From Candidatus Iainarchaeum sp. (lineage in GTDB: Archaea; Iainarchaeota; Iainarchaeia; Iainarchaeales; JAAZKV01): a stretch of DNA of 51,850 nucleotides. The stretch lies in assembly GCA_012799645.1 (NCBI GenBank), contig JAAZKV010000001.1, positions 1-51,850 of the forward strand, given 5' to 3'. The position numbers and the translations under genes were made by a program. Under the pieces are notes generated by a model. The model saw nothing but the letters and a program-made list of their open reading frames with translations. It had not been told where the DNA came from and made no database searches. This document shows, in pieces, positions 1 through 30,422 of this stretch (position 1 is its first letter; each line of letters opens with the position of its first letter).

Positions 1-1112
1 CAATTGTATTTTAAGAATTGTAATTCTTTTTTATTCACTTTTTTTGAATCAATTAATTTTTTTACTTTCGGAGCAATTATTTGCATTTCGTTAATTAAGT
101 GTCTTATTGAATCACAAATTTCATTAATTCCTTTTTTTGGCCATACTGGATTTATGTTTGAATACAAACATCTTCCTCCGCATAGTTCCAAATCTTTACA
201 TTTGTTGCACGGAGCTTTAACAGTTATTTTGAAAGGAAGGGTTTCTGGTTTTGTTGATTTTATGTCACCCAAATAGTATTCTTTTACTCCGCTCATTATT
301 GGACAAGTGGATATTTTTCCGTTCGGCAAAATAGTAAAATTACCTACCCCTGATCCGCATCTTAAATAATATTTTGTTCCAAAAATTAATGAATTAAGTA
401 TTCCAATGAATGGATAAAATCTCAAAGTGTTTCCTTTACTCAATTGATCCAACCAATATGCTGATAGTTTTGAAATATCTTCATTGTATTCTTTAACCCA
501 TTTAGCAAAATTTCTTTTCTCATAATCGTGCCACATATTTGCGTCAAGTTGCCAATGAACTGAACTGAACTTAAATGATTCTTTATCTTTTGGTTCCACT
601 AAATCCATCACATCTTGATAAAAATGTGTGGGTTCTTCTACTGCCATTCTCGCAATTATTTCTCCTTTGAAACCATTTTTTTTTATTAAGTGCAAATTTT
701 TTGTGACTTTTTCCCAAGTTCCTTCTCCCCTATTTTTGTTTGTGGTTTCTCTTCCCCCATCAATTGACACTAAAATTGTGTGAAATTTGTTGACGTATTT
801 TTTTGGTAATTTATCAAGGAGGGTTCCGTTTGTTTGTATTAAAAAATTTTTTACTACTTTGTATTTTTTTTGAGAATCCATCACTTTTTTTATAAAATCA
901 ATATTTAGTAATGGTTCTCCCCCATAAAAAATAATTGAAACTGGTTTGTCCTCATCTTTTTTTAAAAAAGAATTCAATTCACTCATTGTGTATTGTGGTG
1001 TTTCTGGAACTGATTCAAATTTTAATTTACTTTCAGGTTCTGAAAAACTCTTTCCGCAACAATACTCACAACACAAATTACACTCAGGAGTGGTTACAAT
1101 GTGATAAATCAT
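1..1112 (-). CDS. radical SAM / SPASM-domain enzyme (C-terminus runs off the left edge)
   Basis: Own translation of the minus strand from ATG (complement of 1110-1112): MIYHIVTTPECNLCCEYCCGKSF... contains a CxxxCxxC radical-SAM motif (C-NLC-C-EY-C). Near the window edge, CNKCKDLELCGGRC is a Cx2Cx5Cx3C SPASM-type motif. The frame stays open to position 1. It is absent from the ORF track because it has no in-window stop. Confidence 0.8.
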   Translation of the reverse strand, partial: MIYHIVTTPECNLCCEYCCGKSFSEPESKLKFESVPETPQYTMSELNSFLKKDEDKPVSIIFYGGEPLLNIDFIKKVMDSQKKYKVVKNFLIQTNGTLLDKLPKKYVNKFHTILVSIDGGRETTNKNRGEGTWEKVTKNLHLIKKNGFKGEIIARMAVEEPTHFYQDVMDLVEPKDKESFKFSSVHWQLDANMWHDYEKRNFAKWVKEYNEDISKLSAYWLDQLSKGNTLRFYPFIGILNSLIFGTKYYLRCGSGVGNFTILPNGKISTCPIMSGVKEYYLGDIKSTKPETLPFKITVKAPCNKCKDLELCGGRCLYSNINPVWPKKGINEICDSIRHLINEMQIIAPKVKKLIDSKKVNKKELQFLKYN

Positions 1113-1181
1113 AAAGATCACTATTTTTCAAAAATATTGAATAACAAAAGAATTATTAATGAATTAAAAACAATAATACTT

Positions 1182-1721
1182 ATGGGTTTACGAAGAGTTA
1201 TTTCAAACAGATTTGCTAGTGTGTTTAGAAGAGCTAACAAAGTAATTGCTTTAAACCAAAAAAGACGAGCAATAACTAAATTTAAAAAAGCAAAAGAAGC
1301 TCAAGAAATTACTCAAATTATTTCTGACAAAAAAGCCAAAAAATATTATCCCCAAAAAAGTGAAAAAAGTAAACAAAATTTTAAAGCAGCGGATAATGCA
1401 GCGAAAAAAAATGCTAAACAAATTAAAAAAAGAAAACACGCATTTAGTGATCTTTTAGTAGCGAGAGCAAAAACAAAACGCCAACTAAGTGCTATTGAAA
1501 AGAAAGCACACAAATTAACCAGAGGGATTTATAGAGGAGATTTTTGTTCATTTAGAAGTTATTCGGGAAATATTTACGAAGGAGCGTTTAGAAGAATAAC
1601 CACTGCAAAAGTTAGAACTAATTCAGGAATTAAAGAAGTTTTAGCAATAGAAATTGTTCCAAGTGGAAAAAACAAATCAATAAAACTAGCAGTGGATCTG
1701 CTTGAAAAATCAAATAATTAA
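1182..1721 (+). CDS. hypothetical lysine/arginine-rich protein
   Basis: ORF 1101..1721. The longest-ORF start overlaps the divergent rSAM start, so the internal ATG at 1182 (MGLRRVISNRF...) is preferred. No recognisable domain; highly basic. Confidence 0.45.
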   Translation: MGLRRVISNRFASVFRRANKVIALNQKRRAITKFKKAKEAQEITQIISDKKAKKYYPQKSEKSKQNFKAADNAAKKNAKQIKKRKHAFSDLLVARAKTKRQLSAIEKKAHKLTRGIYRGDFCSFRSYSGNIYEGAFRRITTAKVRTNSGIKEVLAIEIVPSGKNKSIKLAVDLLEKSNN

Positions 1722-1946: not shown

Positions 1947-2807
1947 ATGTTTAAATCAATCAACAAAAGTATTGCTTTAACTAAAACAACTATAAAAGTA
2001 ATTTCTAAAGACAAAAAATTGTTTATATTCCCAATCTTGTCAGGGATTTGTTCAATAATTTTTTTCTTCGTAATGATATTTCCTTTCTTTTTAAGCGAAA
2101 TCGCTAAACAAATTGTTGGGGACACTGCTTCCCAAGTTTTGTTCTACATCGCATTATTTTTACTATATCTTGGAATGGCTTTTATTACAACTTTCTTTAA
2201 TGTGTGTGTCGTGTATATAGTGAAAAGTAGACTTGATGGCGGGAGTGCAAAAGCAACGGAAGCAATAAGCTCTGCTTTTTCTAGAATACACTTAATTTTT
2301 GCTTGGAGTATTATTGCAGCAACTGTGGGAATAATAATGGATATAATTGACCAAATTGCTGAAAACCAAGAAGCGATCGGAAAACTAATCATAAATTGGA
2401 TAAATTCAGTTATTGGAGCAACATGGGGAATAATAACTATTTTTGTGGTACCCGCAATGGTTTACAATAATTTAGGCCCACTTGGAGCAATAAAAAAATC
2501 AGTGCAAGTTTTGAGAAAAACTTGGGGAGAATCAGTAATAAGATATGTTGGAATTGGGGTAGTTCAAATGATATCAATAATACTTGCTTTTTTAGTGGGA
2601 ATAGTTTTGTTCTTTATTGGAGCAATGTCAGGAAATGCAATAATTTTTTTCTTAACTTTACTAATATCAATAATGCTAGTTGTTGGAGTAATAGTGTTCT
2701 TTGGACTTGTAACCAGCGTATTTAACACCGCAATATATCATTACGCTGATAGAGGAGAAGTGCCTGAATCTTTTGATGAACAAACAATTAGAAGTGTTAT
2801 TCAATAA
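1947..2807 (+). CDS. multi-pass membrane protein (DUF6159-like by recollection)
   Basis: ORF translation has several hydrophobic spans. The N-terminus MFKSINKSIALTKTTIKVISKDKKLFIFPILSG resembles the DUF6159 family from memory. GGTGA Shine-Dalgarno at 1938-1942. Confidence 0.7.
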   Translation: MFKSINKSIALTKTTIKVISKDKKLFIFPILSGICSIIFFFVMIFPFFLSEIAKQIVGDTASQVLFYIALFLLYLGMAFITTFFNVCVVYIVKSRLDGGSAKATEAISSAFSRIHLIFAWSIIAATVGIIMDIIDQIAENQEAIGKLIINWINSVIGATWGIITIFVVPAMVYNNLGPLGAIKKSVQVLRKTWGESVIRYVGIGVVQMISIILAFLVGIVLFFIGAMSGNAIIFFLTLLISIMLVVGVIVFFGLVTSVFNTAIYHYADRGEVPESFDEQTIRSVIQ

Positions 2808-2987
2808 AACAAAAATAAACACGGAAACGAACAAAACCAAAATAATGAAAAAAAACAACCAAAAATAATAACACAAAAAAACAATTAAAAATAATTGAAA
2901 TCAAAAAACCAATCAAAAAATAAAATCAAAAAAACAGAAATTTAATTAAAAAAATCTAATTAAAGAAATTTAATTAAATAAACTTAA

Positions 2988-3917
2988 TCAAAACTCTCTT
3001 CTAAAATTAATTCCTTTATAGTATTTAGTAACACCAACTTTTTTTCCTTCTTTTATTCTAGAAGCGGCTTTTCTATATTTGAGCACTTTGTTTTTTTTCC
3101 AAACAATCGGCATTTTGGAAACAATTCCATTTCCACCAATGCATCCCCCTTCACAAAACAAAATATCGTAAAATATTTTATCAGGGTTTGAACCAAACAA
3201 TTTTTGTAAATTTTGACACCCGTCAGAAAAAATCATTTCTTCATCTTCCAAAATGTGTTTAGTGTGAAGTGTTTCTGTTAACCCTCCACTTAAAGGATAC
3301 ACTTTTGTGTATTCATTGTAAAATGAATCAAAAATATTTGAACCCACTAATCTTGGTTTTTCTTTAGCAACAATTTGTTTTAATTCACTAAAAGTTATTA
3401 CCACATCAATAAGAGTTTTTTTGTTTTTTTCGTTAAATTGTTTTGACTCAATTTTTTTTGCAGAGCAAGGGGAAACAAAAACTATTTTGTGTTTAGGATA
3501 GTGTTTTTTCAAAACTTTTGCCATCGCAATCATTGGACTATCAAAAGGTAAAAGAAATCTAGAAAAATCAGGATACTTTGCTTTCAACAAATTAACACTT
3601 AATGGACAAACAGATGAAATGAATTTTATTTTTGTTTTCTTGTTTTCTTTAATGTATTTGTGATAATTTTTATTCACTATTTTTGCCCCAAAAGTTAATT
3701 CAGTGATAAGATCAAATCCAAGCCCTCTCATTAATGGAACAAATTTTTTAAAATCAAAATCAACTACAAAAGAAGGAGCAACCATCAAAATAACTTTACT
3801 CTCATTATACCTCAAAGAGTTTCTCAAAAGTCTTAAAGTTTTTAATTGATCTTCTGAATAAGCAAATCCGAAAAAATCAGGATAACCATAAGAATCCAAT
3901 TCAACCATTAATACCAA
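2988..3917 (-). CDS. [FeFe]-hydrogenase large-subunit C-terminal (H-cluster) domain protein, H-domain only, 309 aa
   Basis: Translation carries the three H-cluster signature regions in order: ISSVCPLS (cf. TSCCPxW), VSPCSAKKIE (cf. MPCxxKxxE), LFCEGGCIGGNG (cf. ExMxCxxGCxxGG). It also has APSFVVDF, GFDLITELTFGAKIV and PLSGGLTE blocks typical of PF02906. Start is TTG 3917 or ATG 3908. Confidence 0.8.
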   Translation of the reverse strand: MVLMVELDSYGYPDFFGFAYSEDQLKTLRLLRNSLRYNESKVILMVAPSFVVDFDFKKFVPLMRGLGFDLITELTFGAKIVNKNYHKYIKENKKTKIKFISSVCPLSVNLLKAKYPDFSRFLLPFDSPMIAMAKVLKKHYPKHKIVFVSPCSAKKIESKQFNEKNKKTLIDVVITFSELKQIVAKEKPRLVGSNIFDSFYNEYTKVYPLSGGLTETLHTKHILEDEEMIFSDGCQNLQKLFGSNPDKIFYDILFCEGGCIGGNGIVSKMPIVWKKNKVLKYRKAASRIKEGKKVGVTKYYKGINFRREF

Positions 3918-3959: not shown

Positions 3960-5369
3960 TTAATTAGTTTTTTTATCATTCAAAATTAGTTTGAACACTT
4001 TGTCTTTTGGTCTAACCCTATCATTAACTTTTATTCCAACAGATTGTCCTTGACTAGCAGTATCAATTGGTTTTAGATTTATTTGCATTGAATCAATTTT
4101 TTGTTCTAAAAAAGTTGTTTCTCCTTCAATAAGCAAATTATCTCCTACTGATACTGAATCAAACAATTTTATTTCAGCAACATTTACTTTTGCATAATAT
4201 TTTGTAACGACTCCAATATTTTGTCTTTTTTGTTTTTGGAAACTCCCTTGTCCTTTTGCCAAATCTTTTCCACCAGGAGTTGATAAGTAAAAACCTTTAG
4301 AGAATTCTCTATTATAAACTTTTTTAAGTTCGTTATTCCAATAATTTATTTTCTCAACAGAATAGGTTTTGTCAAACACTGAATCAATTGCTTCCCTATA
4401 ACACCTAGTAGTTGTTGCTACGTAATCGCTTGGTTTTGTTCTCCCCTCTATTTTTAGTGAATCAATTCCTGCTTCAATTAATTTATCAATAAACTCTATT
4501 GTTTTCATATCTTTAGGAGAAATAATTGTGTTGCCCTCCAAAAACACTTCTTTTTTTTCAAAATCAGGAGCGGAACCATCCAGGAAATATACGCTCGCCG
4601 AAGGCACTTCTTTCCCGCTGGTTTTTTCCGAAGGAAAAAAGGATCGCCTACACGGTTGTAAGCATTGACCCCTGTTCGCACTTTTCCCAAAAACCTCGTG
4701 ACTCAAAAAACACCTACCTGAAATAGCAACACACATTGCTCCGTGAATAAAACACTCAATCTTCACTCCCAATTTATGCGCAATTGGAACTATTTTTTTT
4801 ATTTGAACCAAATCAAGTTCTCTTGCAAGCACAATTCTTTTTACTCCAAGATCAGCGTATTTTTTTATTGCAATAGAATTAGTTACTGATGCTTGGGTAG
4901 ATAAGTGTGCTTCAATTTTGTGTTTGTTTGCAAGAGACAACACACCCATATCTGATAATATTATTGCATCAACTTTGGCTTTTTTTGCAGCAACAATTAC
5001 TTTCTCAACCGCACTCAATTCATTCTCAAAAACAACTGTATTCACTGTTAAGTAACCAAAAACTTTTCTTTTACAAGGATTTTTTCCGTGCAAATACTCC
5101 ATCACTTTTTTCAAATCACTATTAGAAAAATTTGTCCCAAAATCCCTCATATTAAATCCTTTAACACCAAAATAAACCGCATCCGCTCCATTTTTTACAG
5201 CAGCAATCAAACTTGGCCAATCCCCTGCCCCACTAAGAAGTTCAGGTTTGGAAAAACTTGGTTTTGAAAAATTAGATCTTGACAATTTTGATTTGTGGAG
5301 TTTAGGTTTATTATTTTTTGTAAGAACTTTTTTAGCAACTTTTTTAACAACCTTTTCTTTAAACTTCAT
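3960..5369 (-). CDS. U32-family Fe-S protein (peptidase U32 / RlhA-TrhP-UbiU-like)
   Basis: PELLSGAGDWPSLIAAVKNGADAVYFG, STQASVTN and GAMCVAISGRCFLSHEVFGKSANRGQCLQPCR (C-x6-C-x15-C-x3-C) match the U32 family. About 40 aa of K-rich N-terminal extension. Confidence 0.85.
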   Translation of the reverse strand: MKFKEKVVKKVAKKVLTKNNKPKLHKSKLSRSNFSKPSFSKPELLSGAGDWPSLIAAVKNGADAVYFGVKGFNMRDFGTNFSNSDLKKVMEYLHGKNPCKRKVFGYLTVNTVVFENELSAVEKVIVAAKKAKVDAIILSDMGVLSLANKHKIEAHLSTQASVTNSIAIKKYADLGVKRIVLARELDLVQIKKIVPIAHKLGVKIECFIHGAMCVAISGRCFLSHEVFGKSANRGQCLQPCRRSFFPSEKTSGKEVPSASVYFLDGSAPDFEKKEVFLEGNTIISPKDMKTIEFIDKLIEAGIDSLKIEGRTKPSDYVATTTRCYREAIDSVFDKTYSVEKINYWNNELKKVYNREFSKGFYLSTPGGKDLAKGQGSFQKQKRQNIGVVTKYYAKVNVAEIKLFDSVSVGDNLLIEGETTFLEQKIDSMQINLKPIDTASQGQSVGIKVNDRVRPKDKVFKLILNDKKTN

Positions 5370-8353: not shown

Positions 8354-10168
8354 ATGGCAAAAGTAGCAAAGGTTTACATTAATGGAAGATTGATTGGGTT
8401 TCACGATGATCCAGAAAGTTTAACAAACAAAGTTGTGGAATCAAGAAGAGAAGGAAAATTACAAAAAGAAATAAACATCGCTTACCAAAAAGACACTAAC
8501 GAAGTTTACATAAACACTGATGCTGGAAGAGTACAAAGACCACTAATTGTAATAAAAAACGGAAAAAGCACTTACACTCCTGAAATCGCAAAACAAGTAA
8601 AAGAAGGAAAATTAACTTTCCAAAAATTATTAGAAATGGGAATAGTAGAGTACCTTGATGCTGAAGAAGAAGAAAACACACTAATCGCACTAAACGAAGA
8701 AGAAATAACAAAAAACCACACCCACTTAGAAATAAACGGAAGCGCAATACTCGGAGCTGTTAGTAGTTTAATCCCATACATAGAACACGATATGGCAGGA
8801 AAAGCACTACACGGAGCAAAAATGTTCAAACAAGCAATAGGGTTCGGAGCAGCGAACTACAAAATAAGACACGATACAGAAGGATACTTATTATACTACC
8901 CAGAAGTACCAATTGTTAAAACAAAAACAATGGATATGTTACAATTAGAAAAAAGACCACAATCACAAAACTTTGTAATGGCAATAATGCCATTTTACGG
9001 ATTCAACACAATGGATGCAGTAATACTAAACAAAGGAGCAATTGACAGAGGATTAGCAAGAGCGTGTTATCTTAGAAATTACGAAGCATCAGAACAAAGA
9101 TACCCAGGAGGACAAAGAGACAAATTCGAAATACCAACAGAAGAAAAAGTAGGGTTTGTAGAAGAACAACAATTCAAAAAACTAGGAGAGGACGGAATAG
9201 TTAGACTTGAAGAATACATAGAAGAAGGAGAAGCAATTATTGGAAGAACCTCACCACCAAAATTCTTTGAAGACATGACTGATTTTGGAGTGGATGAAGA
9301 AAAAAGAAGAGATAGTTCAGTAACTATTAGAAAAGGAAAACCAGGATATGTTGATACAGTAATGATGACTGAAGGAGAAGATGGAAGCAGATTAGTGAAA
9401 ATAAAAGTAAGAACAACACTAACACCAGCAGTAGGAGACAAAATCGCTTCAAAACACGGACAAAAAGGAGTAGTATCAGCAATCATTCCAGAAGAAGACA
9501 TGCCATTCACTATTGAAGGAATAAAACCTGACCTAATCCTAAACCCACACTCAATCCCATCAAGAATGACCATGGGACACTTAATGGAAATGTTCGGAGG
9601 AAAACTAGGAGCAGCAAAAGGAGAAATAATTGACGGAACCCCATTCAATAGTATGACAAGAGAAGAAATAGAAAAAGAACTAACCAAAGCAGGGTTCAGA
9701 GCGGACGGAATGGAAATATTCTACGACGGAATTACAGGAAAAAGAATAGAAGGAAGCATATTTACAGGAGTAATCGCAACACAAAAACTCTACCACGTAG
9801 TATCACACAAACTACAAGCAAGAGCAAGAGGACCAGTACAAGTACTAACAAGACAACCAACAGAAGGAAAAGAAAAAGAAGGAGGACTACGATTCGGAGA
9901 AATGGAAGGAGAAACACTAGTAGGACACGGAGCAGCAATGTTACTCCACGAAAAAATGATAGAGGACTCAGACAAAACAGTAGAACTCGTATGCGAAAAA
10001 TGCGGAGTAATCGCAGTAAATGATGAAATAAGAAGAAAAAAATACTGCCCACTATGCAAAACAGCAGCAGTGTATCCAGTAGAAATGTCATACGGATTCA
10101 AACTACTATTAGATGAATTAAAAGCGTTAGGAATAATGACAAAATTAAACCTAACAGACAAAGTATAA
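8354..10168 (+). CDS. rpoB1: RNA polymerase subunit B' (C-terminal half of split Rpo2)
   Basis: MAKVAKVYINGRLIGFHDDP...SKHGQKGVVS...GGLRFGEMEGETLVGHGAA...CEKCG...CPLC. GGTGA at 8342-8346 precedes ATG 8354. The ORF-track start at 8225 reads through an upstream insert and is rejected. Confidence 0.95.
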   Translation: MAKVAKVYINGRLIGFHDDPESLTNKVVESRREGKLQKEINIAYQKDTNEVYINTDAGRVQRPLIVIKNGKSTYTPEIAKQVKEGKLTFQKLLEMGIVEYLDAEEEENTLIALNEEEITKNHTHLEINGSAILGAVSSLIPYIEHDMAGKALHGAKMFKQAIGFGAANYKIRHDTEGYLLYYPEVPIVKTKTMDMLQLEKRPQSQNFVMAIMPFYGFNTMDAVILNKGAIDRGLARACYLRNYEASEQRYPGGQRDKFEIPTEEKVGFVEEQQFKKLGEDGIVRLEEYIEEGEAIIGRTSPPKFFEDMTDFGVDEEKRRDSSVTIRKGKPGYVDTVMMTEGEDGSRLVKIKVRTTLTPAVGDKIASKHGQKGVVSAIIPEEDMPFTIEGIKPDLILNPHSIPSRMTMGHLMEMFGGKLGAAKGEIIDGTPFNSMTREEIEKELTKAGFRADGMEIFYDGITGKRIEGSIFTGVIATQKLYHVVSHKLQARARGPVQVLTRQPTEGKEKEGGLRFGEMEGETLVGHGAAMLLHEKMIEDSDKTVELVCEKCGVIAVNDEIRRKKYCPLCKTAAVYPVEMSYGFKLLLDELKALGIMTKLNLTDKV

Positions 10169-10306
10169 AATAAAAAAATTTGAAAAAAAAAGAAAAATGT
10201 GAAAATAAAAATTTTTGAAAAAATGGAGGAACAATGACTTGAAAAGCTTTATTGAGCGAGTGAAAAACAAGCGAAAATAATGCTCACACGTTAAGGGTGA
10301 TTGGTT

Positions 10307-12925
10307 ATGATAATGAAAAAAATTGGAAGTGTTGAGTTCAGTATTTTAGGACCTGAAATGATTAGAAAAATGAGTGCGATAGAAATCAAAACACCCGAAA
10401 CTTATGACAAAGATGGATACCCAATGGAAGGAGGGCTAATGGATGCTCACCTAGGAGTAATCAATCCAGGAATAAGATGCAAAACTTGCGGACAAGGAAT
10501 GAGAAATTGCCCAGGACACTTCGGACACATTGAACTAGAAAGACCTGTTGTTCACTCAGAGTTTGGAAGAAAACTAGAACTACTAATGAACACTACATGT
10601 AAAGATTGCGGAAACATACTATTACCAGAAGAACAAATAAAAAAATTACAAGAAGAAGCAAAAGGAAAAGTGGTTGATAAAACAAAAAAAATAATGATAA
10701 AAACAAAAACCGTAAAAAAATGCCCACACTGTTCAGCACCAGCACACAAAACAACACTTGACAAACCAACAAACTTCTTCTACAACAAAGAAAGAATTTA
10801 CCCAACACAAATAAGAGAATGGGTAGAAAAAATACCAGAAGAACACCTAAGAATACTAGGATATGACACTACAAGAATCAAACCAGAATGGTTCATAATG
10901 ACCTCACTACAAGTACCACCAATCACTATAAGACCGAGCATAACACTTGATAATGGAATAAAATCAGAAGATGATTTAACACACAAACTAGTTGATATTA
11001 TTAGAATTAATCAAAGATTAAAAGACAACATAGAAGCAGGAGCACCACAACTAATAATAGAAGATCTATGGGACCTGCTACAATACCACGTAACAACCTA
11101 CTTTGATAACAACACCGCAGGAGTGCCACCAGCAAAACACAGAAGTGGAAGACCACTAAGAACAATAATACAAAGATTGAAAGGAAAAAAAGGAAGATTC
11201 AGATACAACCTAACAGGAAAAAGAGTAAACCACGCAGCAAGAACAATAATCGTGCCAGACCCATACATTGATTTATCAGAACTAGGAATACCAGAAGAAG
11301 CAGCAAAAGAACTAACAGTACCAGAGTTCGTAACAGAATGGAATCTAGAAACAGTAAAAAAAATTGTGGAAAAAAGCGACAGACCAGTATACATTATAAG
11401 ACCAAACGGAACAAGAAGAAAAGTAACAGAAGAAAACAAAGAAGAAATCGTAAAAGAAATTGATATTGGATACAGAATAGAAAGAAACCTAAAAGACGGA
11501 GATATTGTTTTATTCAACAGACAACCATCACTACACAGAATGAGTATGATGGCACACACCGCAAGAATTATGCCAGGAAAAGTATTCAGAATGAACCCAA
11601 TAGTGTGTCCCCCATACAACGCTGACTTTGATGGAGATGAAATGAACTGCCACGTACCACAAACAGAAGAAGGAAAAGCAGAAGCAAAAAAACTAATGCT
11701 AGCAAGAGACCAAATCATATCACCAAGATTCGGAGCACCAGTAATCGCACCAAAAGAAGACGGAGTGAGCGGAGCATTCGCACTAACAATGCCACAAACA
11801 GAATTCACAAAAGAAACAGCAATGCAACTAATGTACGAAATAGGAGTAACAGAATTACCAAAACCTGACAGAGGAAAAAAATACTCAGGAAAATTAATAT
11901 TCTCACAAATACTACCAAAAGACCTAAACCTAGAATACGAATCATACACAAGCAAAATATTCAAACAAGCAGGAATGAAACCAGAAGACGGAAAAATAAT
12001 AGAACAATACATGAACAAAGTAAAAATCGTGAACGGAAACATAGAAAGCGGAGTAATTGATTCCGCATCATTAAGTGAAGGAAAAGGAGTACTAGTTGAT
12101 ACAATAGCAAGAGAATACGACAGCATAGTACTTGAACAATTCTACCACGATCTAAACAGATTAACAGGATACATTTTAACAGAAAAAGGAATGACAGCAT
12201 CACTAGCAGAATATGATGTGAGCAACAACATCGAAACACTAAAAAACAAAGTAATAAACGAAACCATGAAAAAAGCAGAAGAACTAGTAGAATCATACAA
12301 AAAAGGAACAATGGAAATCATACCAGGAAGAACAATACAAGAATCATTCGAACAATACATGATGAGAATTTCAGCAGAAGCAAAAGACAAAGTAGAAAAA
12401 GCAATAATGCAAGAAAAACTACAATACGTAACAGGAGAAGAAGCAGTGCTAAACACAATCGCCATGATACTATCAAAATCAAGAGGAAGCACTACAAACC
12501 TAATGAACATAGCAGGGTTCTGGGGACAAGCATCAGTAAGAGAAGGAAGACCAAAAAAAGGATTCAAGAAAAGACTAATCACATCAAACGAAAGAGCAGA
12601 TGAAGGACTACTAGCAGGAGGATTCATAACCAACAACTTCTTGGACGGAATGACAGCAAAACAATACTTCTACCACTCAATGGGAGGAAGACAAGGAGAA
12701 GTAGACACAGGAGTATCAACAAAAGTATCAGGATACTTATACAGAAGACTAGCAAACTCACTAAAAGACATAGTATCAGCTCCTGACGGAACAGTAAGAA
12801 CAGCATCAAACTCACTAATACAATACCAATACGGAGAAGACGGAGTGTTCCCAAAAAACACTAACAAAGGAAAAAGCGTGGATGTATTAGAAGAATACAA
12901 AAAAATGAAAGCGAAAAAAAATTAA
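10307..12925 (+). CDS. rpoA1: RNA polymerase subunit A' (Rpo1N)
   Basis: CKTCGQGMRNCPGHFGHIEL, RFNRQPSLHRMSMMAH-type block (FNRQPSLHRMSMMAHTARIM) and the catalytic NADFDGDEMN motif. GGGTGA at 10295-10300. Confidence 0.95.
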   Translation: MIMKKIGSVEFSILGPEMIRKMSAIEIKTPETYDKDGYPMEGGLMDAHLGVINPGIRCKTCGQGMRNCPGHFGHIELERPVVHSEFGRKLELLMNTTCKDCGNILLPEEQIKKLQEEAKGKVVDKTKKIMIKTKTVKKCPHCSAPAHKTTLDKPTNFFYNKERIYPTQIREWVEKIPEEHLRILGYDTTRIKPEWFIMTSLQVPPITIRPSITLDNGIKSEDDLTHKLVDIIRINQRLKDNIEAGAPQLIIEDLWDLLQYHVTTYFDNNTAGVPPAKHRSGRPLRTIIQRLKGKKGRFRYNLTGKRVNHAARTIIVPDPYIDLSELGIPEEAAKELTVPEFVTEWNLETVKKIVEKSDRPVYIIRPNGTRRKVTEENKEEIVKEIDIGYRIERNLKDGDIVLFNRQPSLHRMSMMAHTARIMPGKVFRMNPIVCPPYNADFDGDEMNCHVPQTEEGKAEAKKLMLARDQIISPRFGAPVIAPKEDGVSGAFALTMPQTEFTKETAMQLMYEIGVTELPKPDRGKKYSGKLIFSQILPKDLNLEYESYTSKIFKQAGMKPEDGKIIEQYMNKVKIVNGNIESGVIDSASLSEGKGVLVDTIAREYDSIVLEQFYHDLNRLTGYILTEKGMTASLAEYDVSNNIETLKNKVINETMKKAEELVESYKKGTMEIIPGRTIQESFEQYMMRISAEAKDKVEKAIMQEKLQYVTGEEAVLNTIAMILSKSRGSTTNLMNIAGFWGQASVREGRPKKGFKKRLITSNERADEGLLAGGFITNNFLDGMTAKQYFYHSMGGRQGEVDTGVSTKVSGYLYRRLANSLKDIVSAPDGTVRTASNSLIQYQYGEDGVFPKNTNKGKSVDVLEEYKKMKAKKN

Positions 12926-19417: not shown

Positions 19418-20548
19418 ATGATACCGAATAATTTGAAGGATCTTGTTACTTTTGTTCCAAACAAAAATGAGTCAATACACAATTGGTTTTATTACAAAGA
19501 AGGTTATTCAAAAGAACTCATAGAGTGGCTTGTTAAAGAATACAAACTCACTGGACCAATTTATGATCCCTTTGCAGGAGTTGGAACAACTCTGCTTGTT
19601 GCAAAAAATTTGGGGATTAGTGCGATAGGAACTGATGTGAGTCCGCTAACATCATTCATTTGCAGTGTGAAAACAAGAAATTATGACACTAGTATTTTGA
19701 AAGAAGAGCTTGAAAAACTTGCTAAACTAAAACCAACAATGGTTGGAAAATATCCAAACAAAAAAATCAGAGAATTATTCAGAGCAAAAAACTTGGATGA
19801 TATATACTACTACCATCAAAAAATATTTGAAATCAAAGATGAAAAAACAAAAAACTTTTTTATGCTCGCATTAATTGACACCACTGGAAGAGTAGCGAAT
19901 GTAATCAAAACCGGTGGAAGTTTAAAAAAAATAAAAAAACACCACATGGATGTAAAAAAACTTTTATTAGGAAAAATAAAAAGAATGATACTTGATATTG
20001 AAAGAACAGAAAACAAAAAAAAACAAATCTCGCAAAATATTGGACAACCTTTGGAGTCAATTGAACCAATTATTTACAACGAAGATGCGCGAACTTTTAG
20101 ATTGGAAGAAAATTCTATTGGGTGTGTTATCACTTCCCCCCCATATTTGAATAAAATTGAGTACACTTCTGTTTACAAAATGGAGCTTGGATTATTTTTT
20201 GATGAACAAGAAACTAGACTTCGTTCTTATGTTGGAGATGTTCCTAGTGTAGAGGGTGAAGAATATGCAGGGTTACCAAATATCGCTATTGCATATTTTC
20301 AGGATATGAAAAAAGTTTTGGAAAATATTTATTTTTGTTTAAAACCAAAAGGAAAAGCTTTCATTATTGTCGCAGGAGGGTGTTTGCCTGATAGAACAGT
20401 GAATTCCGAAACAATAATTGCTGAAGATGCTAAAAAAATAGGATTCACCCTAATTGACATAATTACTGCGAGAGAAATTGCTTGCGTAACAAACCGAACC
20501 CAACACATCGGAAAAGTAAAAGAAGCGATAATCATACTAGAAAAATAA
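19418..20548 (+). CDS. SAM-dependent DNA methyltransferase (N4-C or N6-A type), orphan
   Basis: DPFAGVGTT (SAM-binding motif I) near aa 50 and VITSPPY (motif IV, (S/D/N)PPY) about 190 aa later. No adjacent endonuclease ORF. The 3' end is followed by a duplicated copy of itself (see findings). Confidence 0.65.
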   Translation: MIPNNLKDLVTFVPNKNESIHNWFYYKEGYSKELIEWLVKEYKLTGPIYDPFAGVGTTLLVAKNLGISAIGTDVSPLTSFICSVKTRNYDTSILKEELEKLAKLKPTMVGKYPNKKIRELFRAKNLDDIYYYHQKIFEIKDEKTKNFFMLALIDTTGRVANVIKTGGSLKKIKKHHMDVKKLLLGKIKRMILDIERTENKKKQISQNIGQPLESIEPIIYNEDARTFRLEENSIGCVITSPPYLNKIEYTSVYKMELGLFFDEQETRLRSYVGDVPSVEGEEYAGLPNIAIAYFQDMKKVLENIYFCLKPKGKAFIIVAGGCLPDRTVNSETIIAEDAKKIGFTLIDIITAREIACVTNRTQHIGKVKEAIIILEK

Positions 20549-25209: not shown

Positions 25210-25878
25210 ATGGTTGATTACGTAGAAGCAATCAAGAAGCCATTTTCTGATCTTAAAACACTAGCTATTGGAACTATACTATCAGCAATTCCACTAGTTA
25301 ATTTGTTAGCATCAGGATTTGCTTTGAAAGTTGCTGAAGATACAATCAAAGGAAAAAAAGCATTGAGAAGCTTTGCTGTAGATGATATTGTTGAATACAT
25401 TATCAAAGTAATTATGGCATTCGTTATCTCACTAGTGTACATGATAATCCCAACAATAATATTAGGGATAGGAATCGGAGCAGGAGTTACTGCCCTAATC
25501 GGCGGAATGACTGATCCAAACGCTGCAGGAGAAGCAATCGCGGCTACTTTGGCTTTAGGAGGACCATTCATACTAATCGGGGTACTTCTAATGATAATAG
25601 CATCATTTTTGCTGCCAATGGCTATGATGAAATGGCTAAAAGCAGGAAAAATCGGAGCAGCTTTCAAAGTAGGAGAAGTTGTTAAAAGTGCTTTAACATT
25701 AAAGTACATAATAACTCTTGTAGTAATAGTAATCTACGCAGCAATTGTTGGAACAATCGCAGGAATACTTTCAACTTTGTTAGCAATAACAGTAATCCTA
25801 CCAATACTAATAATGGGATTAGTGTCATTCATAATGAGTGTAACTACTATGACAATGTATGCGGAAGCATCAAAATAA
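25210..25878 (+). CDS. multi-pass membrane protein (DUF4013-like by recollection)
   Basis: The N-terminus IKKPFSDLKTLAIGTILSAIPLVNLLASGFALKVAEDTIKG resembles archaeal DUF4013, followed by several TM spans. AAGGAGG Shine-Dalgarno at 25194-25200. Confidence 0.7.
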   Translation: MVDYVEAIKKPFSDLKTLAIGTILSAIPLVNLLASGFALKVAEDTIKGKKALRSFAVDDIVEYIIKVIMAFVISLVYMIIPTIILGIGIGAGVTALIGGMTDPNAAGEAIAATLALGGPFILIGVLLMIIASFLLPMAMMKWLKAGKIGAAFKVGEVVKSALTLKYIITLVVIVIYAAIVGTIAGILSTLLAITVILPILIMGLVSFIMSVTTMTMYAEASK

Positions 25879-26168: not shown

Positions 26169-27779
26169 ATGCCACAATGTAACGTTATGAAGTTAATTTA
26201 TACGAGTGTTTTTTTAGTGCTAGCATTTAGTTTGGTTAGTGCTTGTAGTGTTGATTTTAGAGACACTATTTTGGAGCTAAGAAGTGATAGTAGTGGTTAT
26301 GGAACAAACATTACTGCGGAAGATTATGATAATGTTACTATTAGATTGAAGTTTGAAATCGAAGATGTTTATGGATCAAATTGTGCCCAATACATTAAAG
26401 CAAACGCAAAAATTTATAGACAGGACGAGGATGGGTATTGGAGTGAATTCAAAACAATTAGCACAAAAAGTGAAAAATTAGAAGAAAATTACTACACTTT
26501 TACTTGGAAAGATATATTTAGAGTGGATGATAGATACACAAAGTACAGGGTTAATGCAGAGATTTTTGACAACAAAGATCAAGAATATGAAAATCTAAGA
26601 GCTTATGTGGAACTAAAAAACAACAACTCATCAAACAGTGATTATGATTACAAACCAACCACTTATTGTGAGGATCTTTCAATAATTGCAAATGATATAG
26701 AAATTAATGAAAATAGTGAACAAAACACAATTTTTTATCTAAAAAATGATTCTACAAAAAGATTTGAAATAACTGAAATAAAAATAACAAGCAACGGATT
26801 AACACTAAACAATTACTACAACGAAAAATACGCTTCTGCTAACGGAATAGCCAACATTATAGTGAAAGCAAAAGCGGATAATGTGTTCTCAAACCAAACT
26901 TACGAAAACAACATAAGCGTAAGAGGAACATTTAGTGATGGAAAAACTTGTTCATTTTCTAACATTCAAAGAAAAACATTCAATGTAAATATTAGAAACA
27001 ATGATTCTATTAGTGCAACATTCAACAACACCCCAAATTGTAATAACTTTTCTATAATCGCACAAGACTATGTGCAAATAGAGAACTTTGGAAAAATACC
27101 AATCAGCATTACAAACGGAACTAACCAAAGAGCTGATGTTTATATAGAAGGAACAATTGAAAGCACCCCTTCACTAATATCACTACCAGCAAACAGTGCA
27201 ATAACAAGAGATATTGACATAAAAACATATTTAGGAAGCGGAGAAATAACACTAAGACCAATAGTGAGTGGATGTAATTTTTCTTCAAAAACAATCAAAA
27301 TAACAAACACTGCAAGAGGAAGCATTACCCAATTAAGTATGAACACAAAATTTGAAGAAAATGAAACACAAGGAAACATAATTATCCAAGTAACAAACCC
27401 AACCACAAGAATATTCAACGGAATAGTGAAAATTAGTGCTCCGAATGGATGGAGTGCCAACACAAAAGAAGTAACAATCACTCCTGGAACAAATAATATT
27501 GTAATACCATTAACAAAAACAACTAACGCAATAAATGGGGCAGGAAAGGTTTCATTAATTGTGGAAGATGAAGAAATAAACAACGAATTTAGTGTAACAG
27601 GAGGAAACACTACAAGATCACTTGCAGGATTATTCACACTAGGAATTTTTGGAATAAACAATTTAGCCAACCTACTAATCCTAATCATAGTAGTAATACT
27701 AATAATTGGAATGATAGGAAGAATAACAAGTGATGAAAAAAACGAAAAAACACAAGCGTGGGAAGAAAAAAATAACTAA
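26169..27779 (+). CDS. secreted/surface protein: signal peptide with lipobox-like VSAC, beta-sandwich-like repeats, C-terminal TM anchor
   Basis: N-terminal hydrophobic segment LIYTSVFLVLAFSLVSAC. Internally repeated module (YCEDLSIIANDIEINEN... / PNCNNFSIIAQDYVQIEN... / GCNFSSKTIKITN...). C-terminal LANLLILIIVVILIIGMIG. Many NxS/T sequons. GGTGA Shine-Dalgarno at 26160. Confidence 0.75.
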   Translation: MPQCNVMKLIYTSVFLVLAFSLVSACSVDFRDTILELRSDSSGYGTNITAEDYDNVTIRLKFEIEDVYGSNCAQYIKANAKIYRQDEDGYWSEFKTISTKSEKLEENYYTFTWKDIFRVDDRYTKYRVNAEIFDNKDQEYENLRAYVELKNNNSSNSDYDYKPTTYCEDLSIIANDIEINENSEQNTIFYLKNDSTKRFEITEIKITSNGLTLNNYYNEKYASANGIANIIVKAKADNVFSNQTYENNISVRGTFSDGKTCSFSNIQRKTFNVNIRNNDSISATFNNTPNCNNFSIIAQDYVQIENFGKIPISITNGTNQRADVYIEGTIESTPSLISLPANSAITRDIDIKTYLGSGEITLRPIVSGCNFSSKTIKITNTARGSITQLSMNTKFEENETQGNIIIQVTNPTTRIFNGIVKISAPNGWSANTKEVTITPGTNNIVIPLTKTTNAINGAGKVSLIVEDEEINNEFSVTGGNTTRSLAGLFTLGIFGINNLANLLILIIVVILIIGMIGRITSDEKNEKTQAWEEKNN

Positions 27780-28040: not shown

Positions 28041-30422
28041 ATGGAAATTGGAAAAAAACAATTAACAATAATTGGAATAATAATAATCCTAATAATAGTT
28101 CTATTCTTGTTATTTAACAATACTCAAACAACCACTCAATCTTTTTCTTTTTCTGAGTTCAAAATGGATAAATCCATTTCTATTAACGGAGATACTCGAA
28201 TCGAAACTTACACATTTGATACACAAAACCCAATAATCGCATACTTAATAATCCCAAAAACAATCGCTGAAAATATCTCCCAACTAACAATAAACGGAGA
28301 TTACTCAACAACCATAATAGAAAGCGACCCAATACTATTACTAAAACAAAACGAATACACACCAGGAACAAAAAAACTAACAATAGAAACAAAAACAGGA
28401 AACAAAGAACACACCACCATCCTACTCCCAATAAACCTAACTGACTATGAAACATTCACCGAAGAAGAAAAACAACAACTAACAGAAACAATAAAACAAT
28501 TCAACCACATAGAAGAAAAATACTACACAACCGAAGAAGTAAAACAAATAATAGAAGAATTCGCAAAAGGAACACAAACAAACATAGAACTACAAGAAAA
28601 AAAAGAAGGGCAAATTTTTTTATCAGAAACGAGCAAACCAAAAAACAATATTATAAAATCAATAAACACCATTCTTGAAAACACTAATACTGACCCGAAC
28701 CAAAATTTTGCAAAAAAAGAAAGCATATTTGAAACACTAATGTTTATTTTGGATCAAAAAGTAAAAGAAGAACCAACAAAACTAGAAGAATTTGAAAATA
28801 AAATTCTAATTGAACTTGAACCAAAAAACAACAAATCAATCCCAAAAGAAATTAATCTATATTTATCTGAAAAAAAATTATCGGATACAATCAACATACA
28901 ATTAAATAACACCAACCAACACATAACCCCAATTATAGAAACAAGTAACGAAATTTCTAAATACATCAAAGCAAAAGTAAATAATTCAGATAAAAATGAG
29001 AAAGAACTCATTATTTCAATAGATCTGAACGAAAACACATTTAACGATTTAAATCAAATAAAATTACGCCAAATTAAATTTACTTTAAATTACCATTTTG
29101 AAAAAAAAACGGATCACAACATAAACATAATTTTTGGAAAATGTGAAGAAAACATTGGCTTAAAATTAAGAACAATCGGACAAGAAATAAACCCAGACAA
29201 AATACTTGCAAAATGTGATAATAACACATTTACAAACGATTCAAATACCCTTGATAAAAACAATTCAAAAACAAACACATTTACAAACGATTCAAATAAA
29301 CTAGATAAAAATAATTCAAAAATAAACCAAAACGATAAAAACACTCAAAAAGATTCTAATATTTTTGATGAAAAATTAATAGAAACCTTACTAGAAGAAT
29401 TTTTCCAACACAATTCAATACTAGCCAATCTACCAATTTATACAATCACCAAAGACCAAAATATTTCATTAAAAAACTGTGAAAATGGTTGTTATATTCA
29501 AACAAATTCTAATTTAATAAAAGAACTATTTGATCAAAACATCATAAAAGACAAAAACACTATAAAAATCCCATTTGACCAAATAAAAAGCATCACCATT
29601 CAACTTGTTGATTCCAACAGCGAAGAATCAGAACCAACTGATATGAATTTATTTTATCAATGCAATAGTCCTTGCACTTGGGTAGCAACAAATAGTATTG
29701 AAATTAAAAGATTTGATACAATCTCAATTGCACACATACAACAAAGCACTTTAGCAAATATAAAAATTCAAGGAGAAAATAACAAAGAATTTGTAAATAA
29801 TTTTGAATTCATTTACTACAATAGTGAAACAAATTTCCAAATACCAAATAATGATGCGATGAAATATGTTGAAGAGTTAAAAAAACAAAAAAAAATTATT
29901 TCAGTAATTCAACCTTTTGAAACAAAACAAAAAATAAAAATATTTATTCCCCAAGAACTAAAAAAAATAGAAGAAATGATGAAAACAAGAACCGCACCAT
30001 TTTTATTAAAAGATGGAACAACAAATCCGAACAAATCCGGGTGGTGTTCAGCATACGCTACTAGGTTTGCAAATAAATACTTTGGATTAAACTACAAAAA
30101 AGCAGATGCGTGGGATTTAGTAAAATTAAAGGATCACCAATTGGTTTATAGAGAAACGAAAAAAGGCGGAATAACAAAAGAACAATTTGGAACACTCGTA
30201 GAAAACGACAAAATAATTGAACCTGGAAACATAATAGGAGTTTATTATGCAGATAGCAAATATGATGAACCCGGAAGATTATACACCCATGTGATAGTAT
30301 ATTTAGGAAAAATGAATAAAGAGTACTTGTTCGCGGAAAACTTTACCGGACCAAAAATATCAAGTCTTGATGAAATTTTAAAAAGGCACACAATTATTGA
30401 TGTTATTAAACCAAAAAAGTGA
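28041..30422 (+). CDS. large N-terminally anchored surface protein with C-terminal papain-fold (NlpC/P60-, CHAP- or transglutaminase-like) Cys/His domain
   Basis: N-terminal TM LTIIGIIIILIIVLFLLF and a long N/K/T/E-rich ectodomain. The C-terminal approx. 130 aa contain GWCSAYATRF (Cys669, nt 30045-30047) and YTHVIVYLG (His750, nt 30288-30290), followed by FAENF. TATAAATA box at 28012-28019, 22 nt before the ATG (leaderless). Confidence 0.7.
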   Translation: MEIGKKQLTIIGIIIILIIVLFLLFNNTQTTTQSFSFSEFKMDKSISINGDTRIETYTFDTQNPIIAYLIIPKTIAENISQLTINGDYSTTIIESDPILLLKQNEYTPGTKKLTIETKTGNKEHTTILLPINLTDYETFTEEEKQQLTETIKQFNHIEEKYYTTEEVKQIIEEFAKGTQTNIELQEKKEGQIFLSETSKPKNNIIKSINTILENTNTDPNQNFAKKESIFETLMFILDQKVKEEPTKLEEFENKILIELEPKNNKSIPKEINLYLSEKKLSDTINIQLNNTNQHITPIIETSNEISKYIKAKVNNSDKNEKELIISIDLNENTFNDLNQIKLRQIKFTLNYHFEKKTDHNINIIFGKCEENIGLKLRTIGQEINPDKILAKCDNNTFTNDSNTLDKNNSKTNTFTNDSNKLDKNNSKINQNDKNTQKDSNIFDEKLIETLLEEFFQHNSILANLPIYTITKDQNISLKNCENGCYIQTNSNLIKELFDQNIIKDKNTIKIPFDQIKSITIQLVDSNSEESEPTDMNLFYQCNSPCTWVATNSIEIKRFDTISIAHIQQSTLANIKIQGENNKEFVNNFEFIYYNSETNFQIPNNDAMKYVEELKKQKKIISVIQPFETKQKIKIFIPQELKKIEEMMKTRTAPFLLKDGTTNPNKSGWCSAYATRFANKYFGLNYKKADAWDLVKLKDHQLVYRETKKGGITKEQFGTLVENDKIIEPGNIIGVYYADSKYDEPGRLYTHVIVYLGKMNKEYLFAENFTGPKISSLDEILKRHTIIDVIKPKK
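29224..29325 (+). repeat. 51-nt (17-aa) tandem duplication inside the large surface-protein gene
   Basis: The first 24 nt of each unit, ACACATTTACAAACGATTCAAATA (29224 and 29275), are identical. Peptide units TFTNDSNTLDKNNSKTN / TFTNDSNKLDKNNSKIN. Confidence 0.85.

Follow-up and report, generated by a model that had tools for sequence, protein, structure and literature searches.

A probable ultraminimal group E [FeFe] hydrogenase encoded on a Candidatus Iainarchaeum contig

We analyzed a stretch of 51,850 nucleotides from Candidatus Iainarchaeum sp. (GenBank assembly GCA_012799645.1, contig JAAZKV010000001.1; the whole 51.8 kb stretch is called the window below), which carries a hydA-like gene near its left end. 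The product of this gene is probably an ultraminimal [FeFe] hydrogenase of group E, made up of the H-domain alone, which by analogy with a characterized relative would depend on ferredoxin and evolve H2. This is a known kind of enzyme, described in 2024, and not a new one; taken alone, the gene adds distribution data for the group E family rather than a discovery. A first-pass annotation of the DNA had already proposed an H-domain-only [FeFe]-hydrogenase homologue, and it mentioned reports of small [FeFe] hydrogenases in DPANN archaea. A study of this kind has been published (Greening et al. 2024, Cell 187:3357; PMC11216029).

The Pfam profile PF02906 (Fe_hyd_lg_C) matches the protein with an E value of 1.3e-36 (127 bits, cut-off 22.1) over profile positions 2–244 of 245, and no further Pfam domain was found in it. 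The best NCBIfam matches are all hydrogenase models, headed by TIGR04105 (group B1) with 120 bits, but every one scores far below its trusted cut-off (60 bits versus 406 for the group A model TIGR02512), and this family thus falls outside the curated prokaryotic models. A sequence search of the PDB returned [FeFe] hydrogenases only, with best E values of 4e-13 for the single sequence and 9e-26 for a 29-sequence family profile. An AlphaFold2 model built on a 29-sequence alignment has a mean predicted local distance difference test score (pLDDT) of 86.5 and a predicted template modeling (TM) score (pTM) of 0.87, with disorder at residues 1–16, 201–205 and 292–295 only. When this model was compared with the PDB using Foldseek, the top 50 matches were all [FeFe] hydrogenases, including CbA5H, the TmHydABC alpha subunit and CpI (E ∼1e-15, probability 1.00, query-normalized TM score 0.71–0.75). 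The protein thus has the sequence of an [FeFe]-hydrogenase H-domain and is predicted to adopt its fold. There are five Cys residues in the protein (Cys-104, Cys-151, Cys-234, Cys-255 and Cys-259), four of which are cluster ligands (see below). With a single Pfam domain and only five Cys, the protein has no accessory Fe-S domain, and the proposed lack of an F-cluster domain is borne out, the first Cys being Cys-104.

The open reading frame (ORF) annotated at 2988..3917 exists, on the minus strand, and has 309 residues when read from a TTG at 3917. Reading the DNA directly, we located an in-frame ATG at 3908. The closest orthologues, in the related loci L001 (87% identity) and L002 (72%), are both 306 residues long and start at the equivalent ATG; the coding sequence (CDS) therefore most likely begins at 3908 and not at the TTG, giving a predicted H-domain-only product of ∼35 kDa. 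Residue numbers throughout refer to the 309-residue ORF. The ratio of nonsynonymous to synonymous substitution rates (dN/dS) versus L001 is 0.15 at a dS of 0.5, as expected for a gene under purifying selection and not for a chance ORF. A spurious ORF is excluded by this value together with the PF02906 and PDB sequence matches.

We mapped the active site in a MAFFT L-INS-i alignment of the protein with CpI residues 224–574 (checked against PDB 1feh/4xdc, one position corrected) and 81 family members. HMMER and MAFFT alignments both place Cys-104, Cys-151, Cys-255 and Cys-259 (codons 3606–3608, 3465–3467, 3153–3155 and 3141–3143, checked by hand) on CpI Cys-300, Cys-355, Cys-499 and Cys-503. The three motifs that the first-pass annotation had singled out (ISSVC104P, VSPC151SAKKIE and LFC255EGGC259IGG) thus lie at the residues it gave, with the four ligand cysteines in canonical order. 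Cys-104, Cys-151 and Cys-255 match the ligands of the [4Fe-4S]H cubane in CpI, and Cys-259 matches the Cys that links this cubane to the [2Fe] subcluster. Ser-323–Pro-324, Lys-358 and Glu-361 of CpI are also kept, as Ser-127–Pro-128, Lys-154 and Glu-157, and CpI Phe-417 corresponds to Tyr-207. We take the CpI positions matching Ala-47–Pro-48–Ser-49, Ser-127–Pro-128, Lys-154, Glu-157 and Tyr-207 to line the [2Fe] site.

Other positions have been replaced. CpI Cys-299, Ser-319, Met-353, Met-497, Gln-325 and Ala-498 correspond to Val-103, Leu-123, Ser-149, Leu-253, Met-129 and Phe-254, respectively. Depending on the aligner, Glu-279 falls on Asn-84 or Tyr-85, Glu-282 on Lys-87 or Tyr-88 and Arg-286 on Glu-91 or a gap, and none of the query alignments made contains a Glu/Glu/Arg triad at these positions. 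Neither the proton relay that marks group A (Cys-299/Glu-279/Ser-319/Glu-282/Arg-286) nor its Met-353/Met-497 pair is found in the protein. The Val noted earlier at the proton-relay Cys is thus real, but it is the family consensus, and the remaining positions of the group A pathway, like those of the two second-sphere Met, carry other residues as well. The proton-pathway and second-sphere residue sets of CpI have been described along with their group D substitutions (Ala, Phe, Leu, Glu, Lys; Ser and Leu, respectively), and the group D enzyme TamHydS has Ala, Ser, Leu and Leu at Cys-299/Met-353/Met-497/Ser-319 (PMC11803613). Compared with these sets, the second sphere of our protein (Val/Ser/Leu for Cys/Met/Met) comes near the group D pattern.

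Among 5.8 billion clustered proteins, 455 homologues were found at E<1e-5. Apart from a few shorter fragments, the best 120 of the 455 are nearly all 275–334 residues long and carry PF02906 alone; the named sources among them are archaeal metagenome-assembled genomes (MAGs). Our family alignment comprises 121 sequences, and a genome-context set comprises 80 loci. In the alignment, 45 columns are at least 97% conserved, among them all four Cys, Lys-154 and Glu-157. Cys-104, Pro-105, Pro-150, Cys-151, Lys-154, Glu-157, Cys-255, Gly-258, Cys-259 and Gly-262 are invariant across the family, as are Ala-47 and Pro-48, and Ser-49 is at least 90% conserved. Residue 103 is Val in 96 sequences, Thr in 14, Pro in 7, Ala in 2 and Ser in 1, and Cys occurs at this position in 0 of 121 homologues and 0 of 80 genome loci. 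Val is therefore the family norm and not a peculiarity of this protein. The protein is strongly basic, with an isoelectric point (pI) of 9.6, which is also the family median.

Scanning one genome per GTDB species, we found 230 relatives, the closest of which is from a MAG labeled "archaeon" (86% identity). Identities are 59% for Candidatus Forterrea sp. (L005), 51–64% for Candidatus Iainarchaeum MAGs and 41–51% for MAGs of Nanoarchaeota, Woesearchaeota and Pacearchaeota, with 44% for a protein on contig CABMGN010000008 (L064); the 59 and 44% matches are both full length. A neighbor-joining tree limited to family members resolves three clades: one of Forterrea/Iainarchaeota, which holds our protein, one of Nanoarchaeota type, which holds CABMGN01, and one of MAGs labeled as candidate phyla radiation (CPR). 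We are thus reasonably confident that the protein is to be grouped with the ultraminimal group E enzymes of DPANN archaea, a placement made through the genome names Candidatus Forterrea sp. and CABMGN01 and not through the exact published sequences. From the assembly name we infer that L064 is the enzyme called Na in the Cell paper.

The CPR-labeled clade comprises L046, L050, L051, L061, L063, L065, L070, L072, L076 and L079, with labels of Saccharibacteria, Dojkabacteria, Moraniibacteriota and, for one bin, "Gammaproteobacteria." Its hydrogenases are 280–300 residues long and 40–42% identical to our protein (hydA match at ∼10001–10840 where the flank is complete), and they have Pro at the Cys-299 position and Gly or Ser at the Met-353 position. 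The hydA gene is flanked by that of the bacterial-type GTPase RsgA in L076, and by genes for pyruvate:ferredoxin oxidoreductase (PFOR) and ADP-forming acetyl-CoA synthetase in L065, L063 and L079. The main text of the Cell paper makes no mention of CPR homologues of group E (PMC11216029).

Greening et al. defined the group E "ultraminimal" [FeFe] hydrogenases as monomeric enzymes with a mean length of 286 residues, which keep the ligating Cys but have proton-transferring residues unlike those of other groups (PMC11216029). Enzymes of this group and minimal group A1 enzymes were reported in Iainarchaeota, Micrarchaeota and Nanoarchaeota, and two enzymes were modeled, Fm from Candidatus Forterrea multitransposorum and Na from Nanoarchaeota CABMGN01. 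Fm contains 4.2 Fe per protein and binds one [4Fe-4S] cluster and [2Fe]adt (adt, azadithiolate); with [2Fe]adt it displays the Hox, HoxH and Hred' states in Fourier-transform infrared spectra and has a well-defined cofactor pocket (PMC11216029). It evolves H2, and electrochemically it works in both directions but favors H+ reduction (PMC11216029). Ferredoxin-coupled fermentative H2 production was proposed, and genes for 2-oxoacid:ferredoxin oxidoreductases adjoin the hydrogenase gene in Nanoarchaeota and Micrarchaeota (PMC11216029).

By analogy with the Forterrea enzyme, our protein would bind an H-cluster and catalyze 2H+ + 2e- <-> H2 with a bias to H2 evolution. Electrons would probably arrive straight from reduced ferredoxin at an exposed [4Fe-4S]H cluster; a strongly basic protein of this kind would be well matched to an acidic ferredoxin. 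With the positions of Cys-299, Glu-279, Ser-319, Glu-282 and Arg-286 replaced, protons presumably cannot take the group A relay and would need another route, plausibly by direct solvent access to the exposed cluster. In the cell, the hydrogenase may act as a fermentative electron sink of a DPANN symbiont with a reduced genome. In 17 of the 80 loci, all of them outside the clade of our protein, PFOR genes occur no more than 10 kb from the homologue, often together with ADP-forming acetyl-CoA synthetase, which supports a ferredoxin-to-H2 role for the family. Among the functional options raised in the first-pass annotation, altered proton transfer with catalysis retained is backed by the biochemistry of group E (PMC11216029). 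A non-catalytic scaffold keeps a low standing and survives only because the maturases are missing.

Several points weigh against this assignment. Activity data for group E come from the enzyme Fm only and extend to no member above 60% identity to our protein, and the activity was shown with synthetic [2Fe]adt, in E. coli lysate or with purified protein, and not after native maturation (PMC11216029). The C299A change strongly cuts turnover in group A enzymes (PMC11803613), and the rate of our enzyme may therefore be low. No gene for HydE, HydF, HydG, ferredoxin or PFOR is present in the window, in which the long ORFs examined are all accounted for, and none lies within 10 kb of hydA in any locus of the protein's own clade. 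The earlier reading that no hydE, hydF or hydG is in the window is hence correct; the lone radical S-adenosylmethionine (SAM) gene is of the TIGR04084 type.

The missing maturases could mean that no [2Fe] subcluster is present in vivo and that the protein is a plain [4Fe-4S] protein, such as an electron carrier, an Fe-S scaffold or a Nar1-like factor, with the in vitro H2 formation by group E enzymes being a product of artificial maturation. The lack of a canonical proton relay would fit this explanation, as would the finding that a complete set of maturases occurs in just 5 of 130 archaeal genomes with hydrogenases and that no maturase is encoded in the closed Forterrea genome; an alternative maturation pathway was judged likely (PMC11216029). 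We nevertheless regard a [4Fe-4S]-only protein as unlikely: Lys-154, the bridging Cys-259, Ala-47–Pro-48–Ser-49, Ser-127–Pro-128 and Tyr-207 are invariant or nearly so in more than 120 sequences from three deep clades. Their equivalents in CpI presumably contact the [2Fe] site and have no role in binding a bare cubane. In addition, family members adjoin PFOR and acetyl-CoA synthetase genes, the five Cys of our protein include no Nar1-type N-terminal cluster, and Fm takes up the cofactor into a well-defined pocket (PMC11216029).

The second-sphere pattern raises another alternative, a low-turnover hydrogenase for H2 sensing or regulation like the putatively sensory enzymes of groups C and D. 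The protein has Val/Ser/Leu/Leu at Cys-299/Met-353/Met-497/Ser-319, compared with Ala/Ser/Leu/Leu in TamHydS, and group E has been placed as a sister to group C (PMC11216029). PF02906 with five Cys leaves, however, no PAS, signaling or accessory-cluster domain, no regulator gene adjoins hydA, and homologues in other clades have PFOR and acetyl-CoA synthetase neighbors. Fm is bidirectional with a bias to H+ reduction, unlike TmHydS (PMC11216029), and a sensory role thus appears highly improbable. Of these readings, a ferredoxin-dependent hydrogenase that evolves H2 has the best support.

Table 1. Features of the hydA region, with positions given on the 51,850-nucleotide window
Feature	Position	Strand	Remarks
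hydA-like CDS (probable group E ultraminimal [FeFe] hydrogenase)	2988..3908	minus	306 aa from the likely ATG start; PF02906, AlphaFold2, Foldseek, orthologue starts, dN/dS
A47-P48-S49	3771..3779	minus	equivalent to CpI A230-P231-S232
P1 motif I100-S-S-V103-C104-P105	3603..3620	minus	C104 = CpI C300; V103 replaces proton-relay C299
P2 motif V148-S149-P-C151-S-A-K154-K-I-E157	3447..3476	minus	C151 = C355, K154 = K358, E157 = E361; S149 replaces M353
P3 motif L253-F-C255-E-G-G-C259-I-G-G	3132..3161	minus	C255 = C499, C259 = C503; L253 replaces M497
T-rich stretch with several runs of 5–8 T	2880..2987	minus	directly after the TGA stop of hydA; sequence read
U32-family gene (TrhP/UbiU-like)	3960..5369	minus	PF01136 1.3e-76; 42–51 bp upstream of hydA
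Multi-pass membrane protein (DUF6159)	1947..2807	plus	between hydA and radical SAM gene
206-aa ORF	1101..1721	plus	no family match; between hydA and radical SAM gene
Radical SAM/SPASM gene, TIGR04084 (AF0577 type)	1..1112	minus	first 370 aa; runs off the left edge

A U32-family gene lies on one side of hydA and a radical SAM/SPASM gene on the other (Table 1). The upstream U32 gene matches the NCBIfam models TrhP (1.7e-61) and UbiU (3.6e-52), both under the cut-off, and its product has a Cys-rich motif typical of the family (CX6CX..C..C) and, at the N terminus, a Lys-rich extension that is omitted by another gene call. The downstream gene matches TIGR04084 with 291 bits (cut-off 225) and PF04055, and a CX3CX2C motif scan located the motif CNLCCEYC. 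Neither HydE (TIGR03956) nor HydG (TIGR03955) is among the 25 matches listed for it, the other 24 being mostly SPASM peptide or protein maturases. Transcription of the unit possibly ends in the T-rich stretch behind hydA; in archaea, oligo-T tracts act as transcription terminators.

Of 33 Forterrea-like loci, 28 have a U32 gene. It lies directly upstream of hydA in ∼20 of these, and heterogeneous insertions occur in the others. By tblastn, 30 of the 33 have a radical SAM orthologue as the next gene downstream of hydA in the same orientation; in L058 and L062, two loci of another clade, it is convergent with hydA. Over all loci, a radical SAM gene lies a short way downstream of the hydA match in L001–L031, L035, L058 and L062. 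In most of the 33 loci, the U32, hydA and radical SAM genes share one strand with gaps of 30–100 bp and are flanked by genes on the opposite strand, a layout that looks like a three-gene unit. In the window and in L001, hydA and the radical SAM gene are kept apart by inserted genes on the opposite strand (here 1101–1721 and 1947–2807). The DUF6159 gene occurs in 0 of 80 related loci and the 206-residue ORF is common to L001 only, and both therefore look like recent insertions. A role of the DUF6159 protein as a "hyd6TM"-like partner is rejected on account of its absence from all 80 loci. A DUF4013 membrane protein encoded at 25210..25878 has a weak DUF4013 similarity to the DUF6159 protein.

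The shared strand, the short gaps and the opposite-strand flanks, together with the radical SAM neighbors in the second clade, could point to a functional unit of the U32 (4Fe-4S), hydA and radical SAM/SPASM genes in Forterrea-like Iainarchaeota, in which the SPASM enzyme would help to build or insert the [2Fe] subcluster or would modify HydA; we hold this to be very unlikely. A role of HydA as redox module in an Fe-S unit of the three genes, in which it would supply or remove electrons or be itself matured or modified by the SPASM enzyme, has less probability still. In the Forterrea-like clade, all neighboring genes show much the same degree of synteny. The U32 and hydA genes are separated in eight loci by unrelated genes, of which some lie on the opposite strand, and in the window and L001 the hydA and radical SAM genes are likewise separated. 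With 3363 matches, TIGR04084 is a large family in archaea. The radical SAM genes linked to hydA do not form a monophyletic group, and four of four homologues at 45–50% identity are not beside a hydrogenase gene. The Nanoarchaeota and CPR clades are without both neighbors. Plain clade synteny is thus the favored explanation for the U32–hydA–radical SAM block. A dedicated U32 partner of hydA is weakened by the eight loci with heterogeneous insertions and by three loci that have no U32 gene. As a HydE/HydG substitute, the radical SAM gene keeps a low probability only: it is neither of the two, its distant homologues are unlinked, its copies are not monophyletic, and all neighbors are equally syntenic. 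A link between hydA and radical SAM or U32 genes is not mentioned in the main text of the Cell paper (PMC11216029) or in our other literature searches.

The window also holds evidence on the host. It contains split archaeal rpoB and rpoA genes, genes for aEF-2, aEF-1alpha and RtcB, and a ribosomal-protein/SecY/RpoD cluster, at a GC content of ∼30%. The RpoB fragments are 83–97% identical to those of MAGs labeled Iainarchaeum or archaeon, which, along with the split RpoB/RpoA genes, indicates a DPANN-type archaeon, in line with the first-pass annotation. Candidatus Forterrea is classified in the Iainarchaeota, within the Nanobdellati (DPANN). No RNA genes were detected in the window by Rfam or tRNA scans.

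Outside the hydA region, nearly all genes between 6000 and 51850 lie on the plus strand, with an AT skew of +0.3 to +0.5 and a mostly positive GC skew, so that the coding strand is very rich in purines and in A. A DNA methyltransferase (N6_N4_Mtase) gene at 19418..20548 (plus strand) is located between those for aEF-2 and aEF-1alpha, in a core information-processing region. Two ORFs at 26169..27779 (plus strand, 536 residues) and 28041..30422 (plus strand, 793 residues) have no significant Pfam or NCBIfam family and sit between the translation-factor and ribosomal-protein clusters. The segment at 28–30 kb has the lowest GC content (0.264) and a GC skew that is reversed (−0.29) relative to its surroundings.

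The locus illustrates two questions that concern the whole family, namely how an H-cluster is assembled without HydE, HydF and HydG, and which path protons take without the group A relay. The conserved block of hydA and the radical SAM/SPASM gene (plus U32) and the CPR clade could make these questions testable. The occurrence of the CPR (Patescibacteria) clade beside PFOR and acetyl-CoA synthetase genes points to a minimal H2 module shared between the two radiations of ultra-small symbionts.

Comparison with characterized systems places the protein as follows. With the group A1 enzymes CpI and C. reinhardtii HydA1 it shares the predicted fold (TM score 0.71–0.75), the four Cys ligands and the equivalents of Lys-358, Glu-361, Pro-324, Ser-323 and Ala-230–Pro-231–Ser-232. 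It is, however, only 29% identical to the CpI H-domain, with loops of 12, 8, 16, 9 and 17 residues deleted in the pairwise alignment, and it has no F-clusters; Cys-299/Glu-279/Ser-319/Glu-282/Arg-286 are not kept, Met-353 is replaced by Ser and Met-497 by Leu. PF02906 is common to our protein and to Nar1/NARF, and both are without the first Cys of the TSCC pair. Nar1 is a eukaryotic protein that carries PF02906 and lacks this Cys. Proteins of the Nar1/NARF type, which act in cytosolic iron-sulfur assembly (CIA), have an N-terminal ferredoxin-like four-Cys cluster, whereas the first Cys of our protein is Cys-104; its host is archaeal, and its nearest relatives are hydrogenases with demonstrated activity. 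The Nar1/CIA alternative named in the first-pass annotation thus falls away, as neither the N-terminal Cys cluster nor a eukaryotic context is found.

The second sphere resembles that of the group C and D enzymes TmHydS and TamHydS, with a small or aliphatic residue at Cys-299, Ser at Met-353, Leu at Met-497 and Leu at Ser-319. Those enzymes have PAS or C-terminal domains and accessory clusters, in contrast to our protein, which has no such domains and no spare Cys, and the characterized group E enzyme Fm favors H+ reduction, unlike TmHydS. The closest agreement is with group E itself (Greening et al. 2024). Our protein is likewise H-domain only (306 residues compared with a group mean of 286), has by sequence one [4Fe-4S] site and one [2Fe] site and non-canonical proton-transfer residues, is encoded in a DPANN (Iainarchaeota-like) host with no maturases nearby, and shows the same conserved columns. 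U32 and radical SAM/SPASM genes stand beside hydA in its clade, and the 2-oxoacid:ferredoxin oxidoreductase genes known from Nanoarchaeota and Micrarchaeota are not near. Nothing essential differs, and the protein is most readily described as a further, uncharacterized member of group E.

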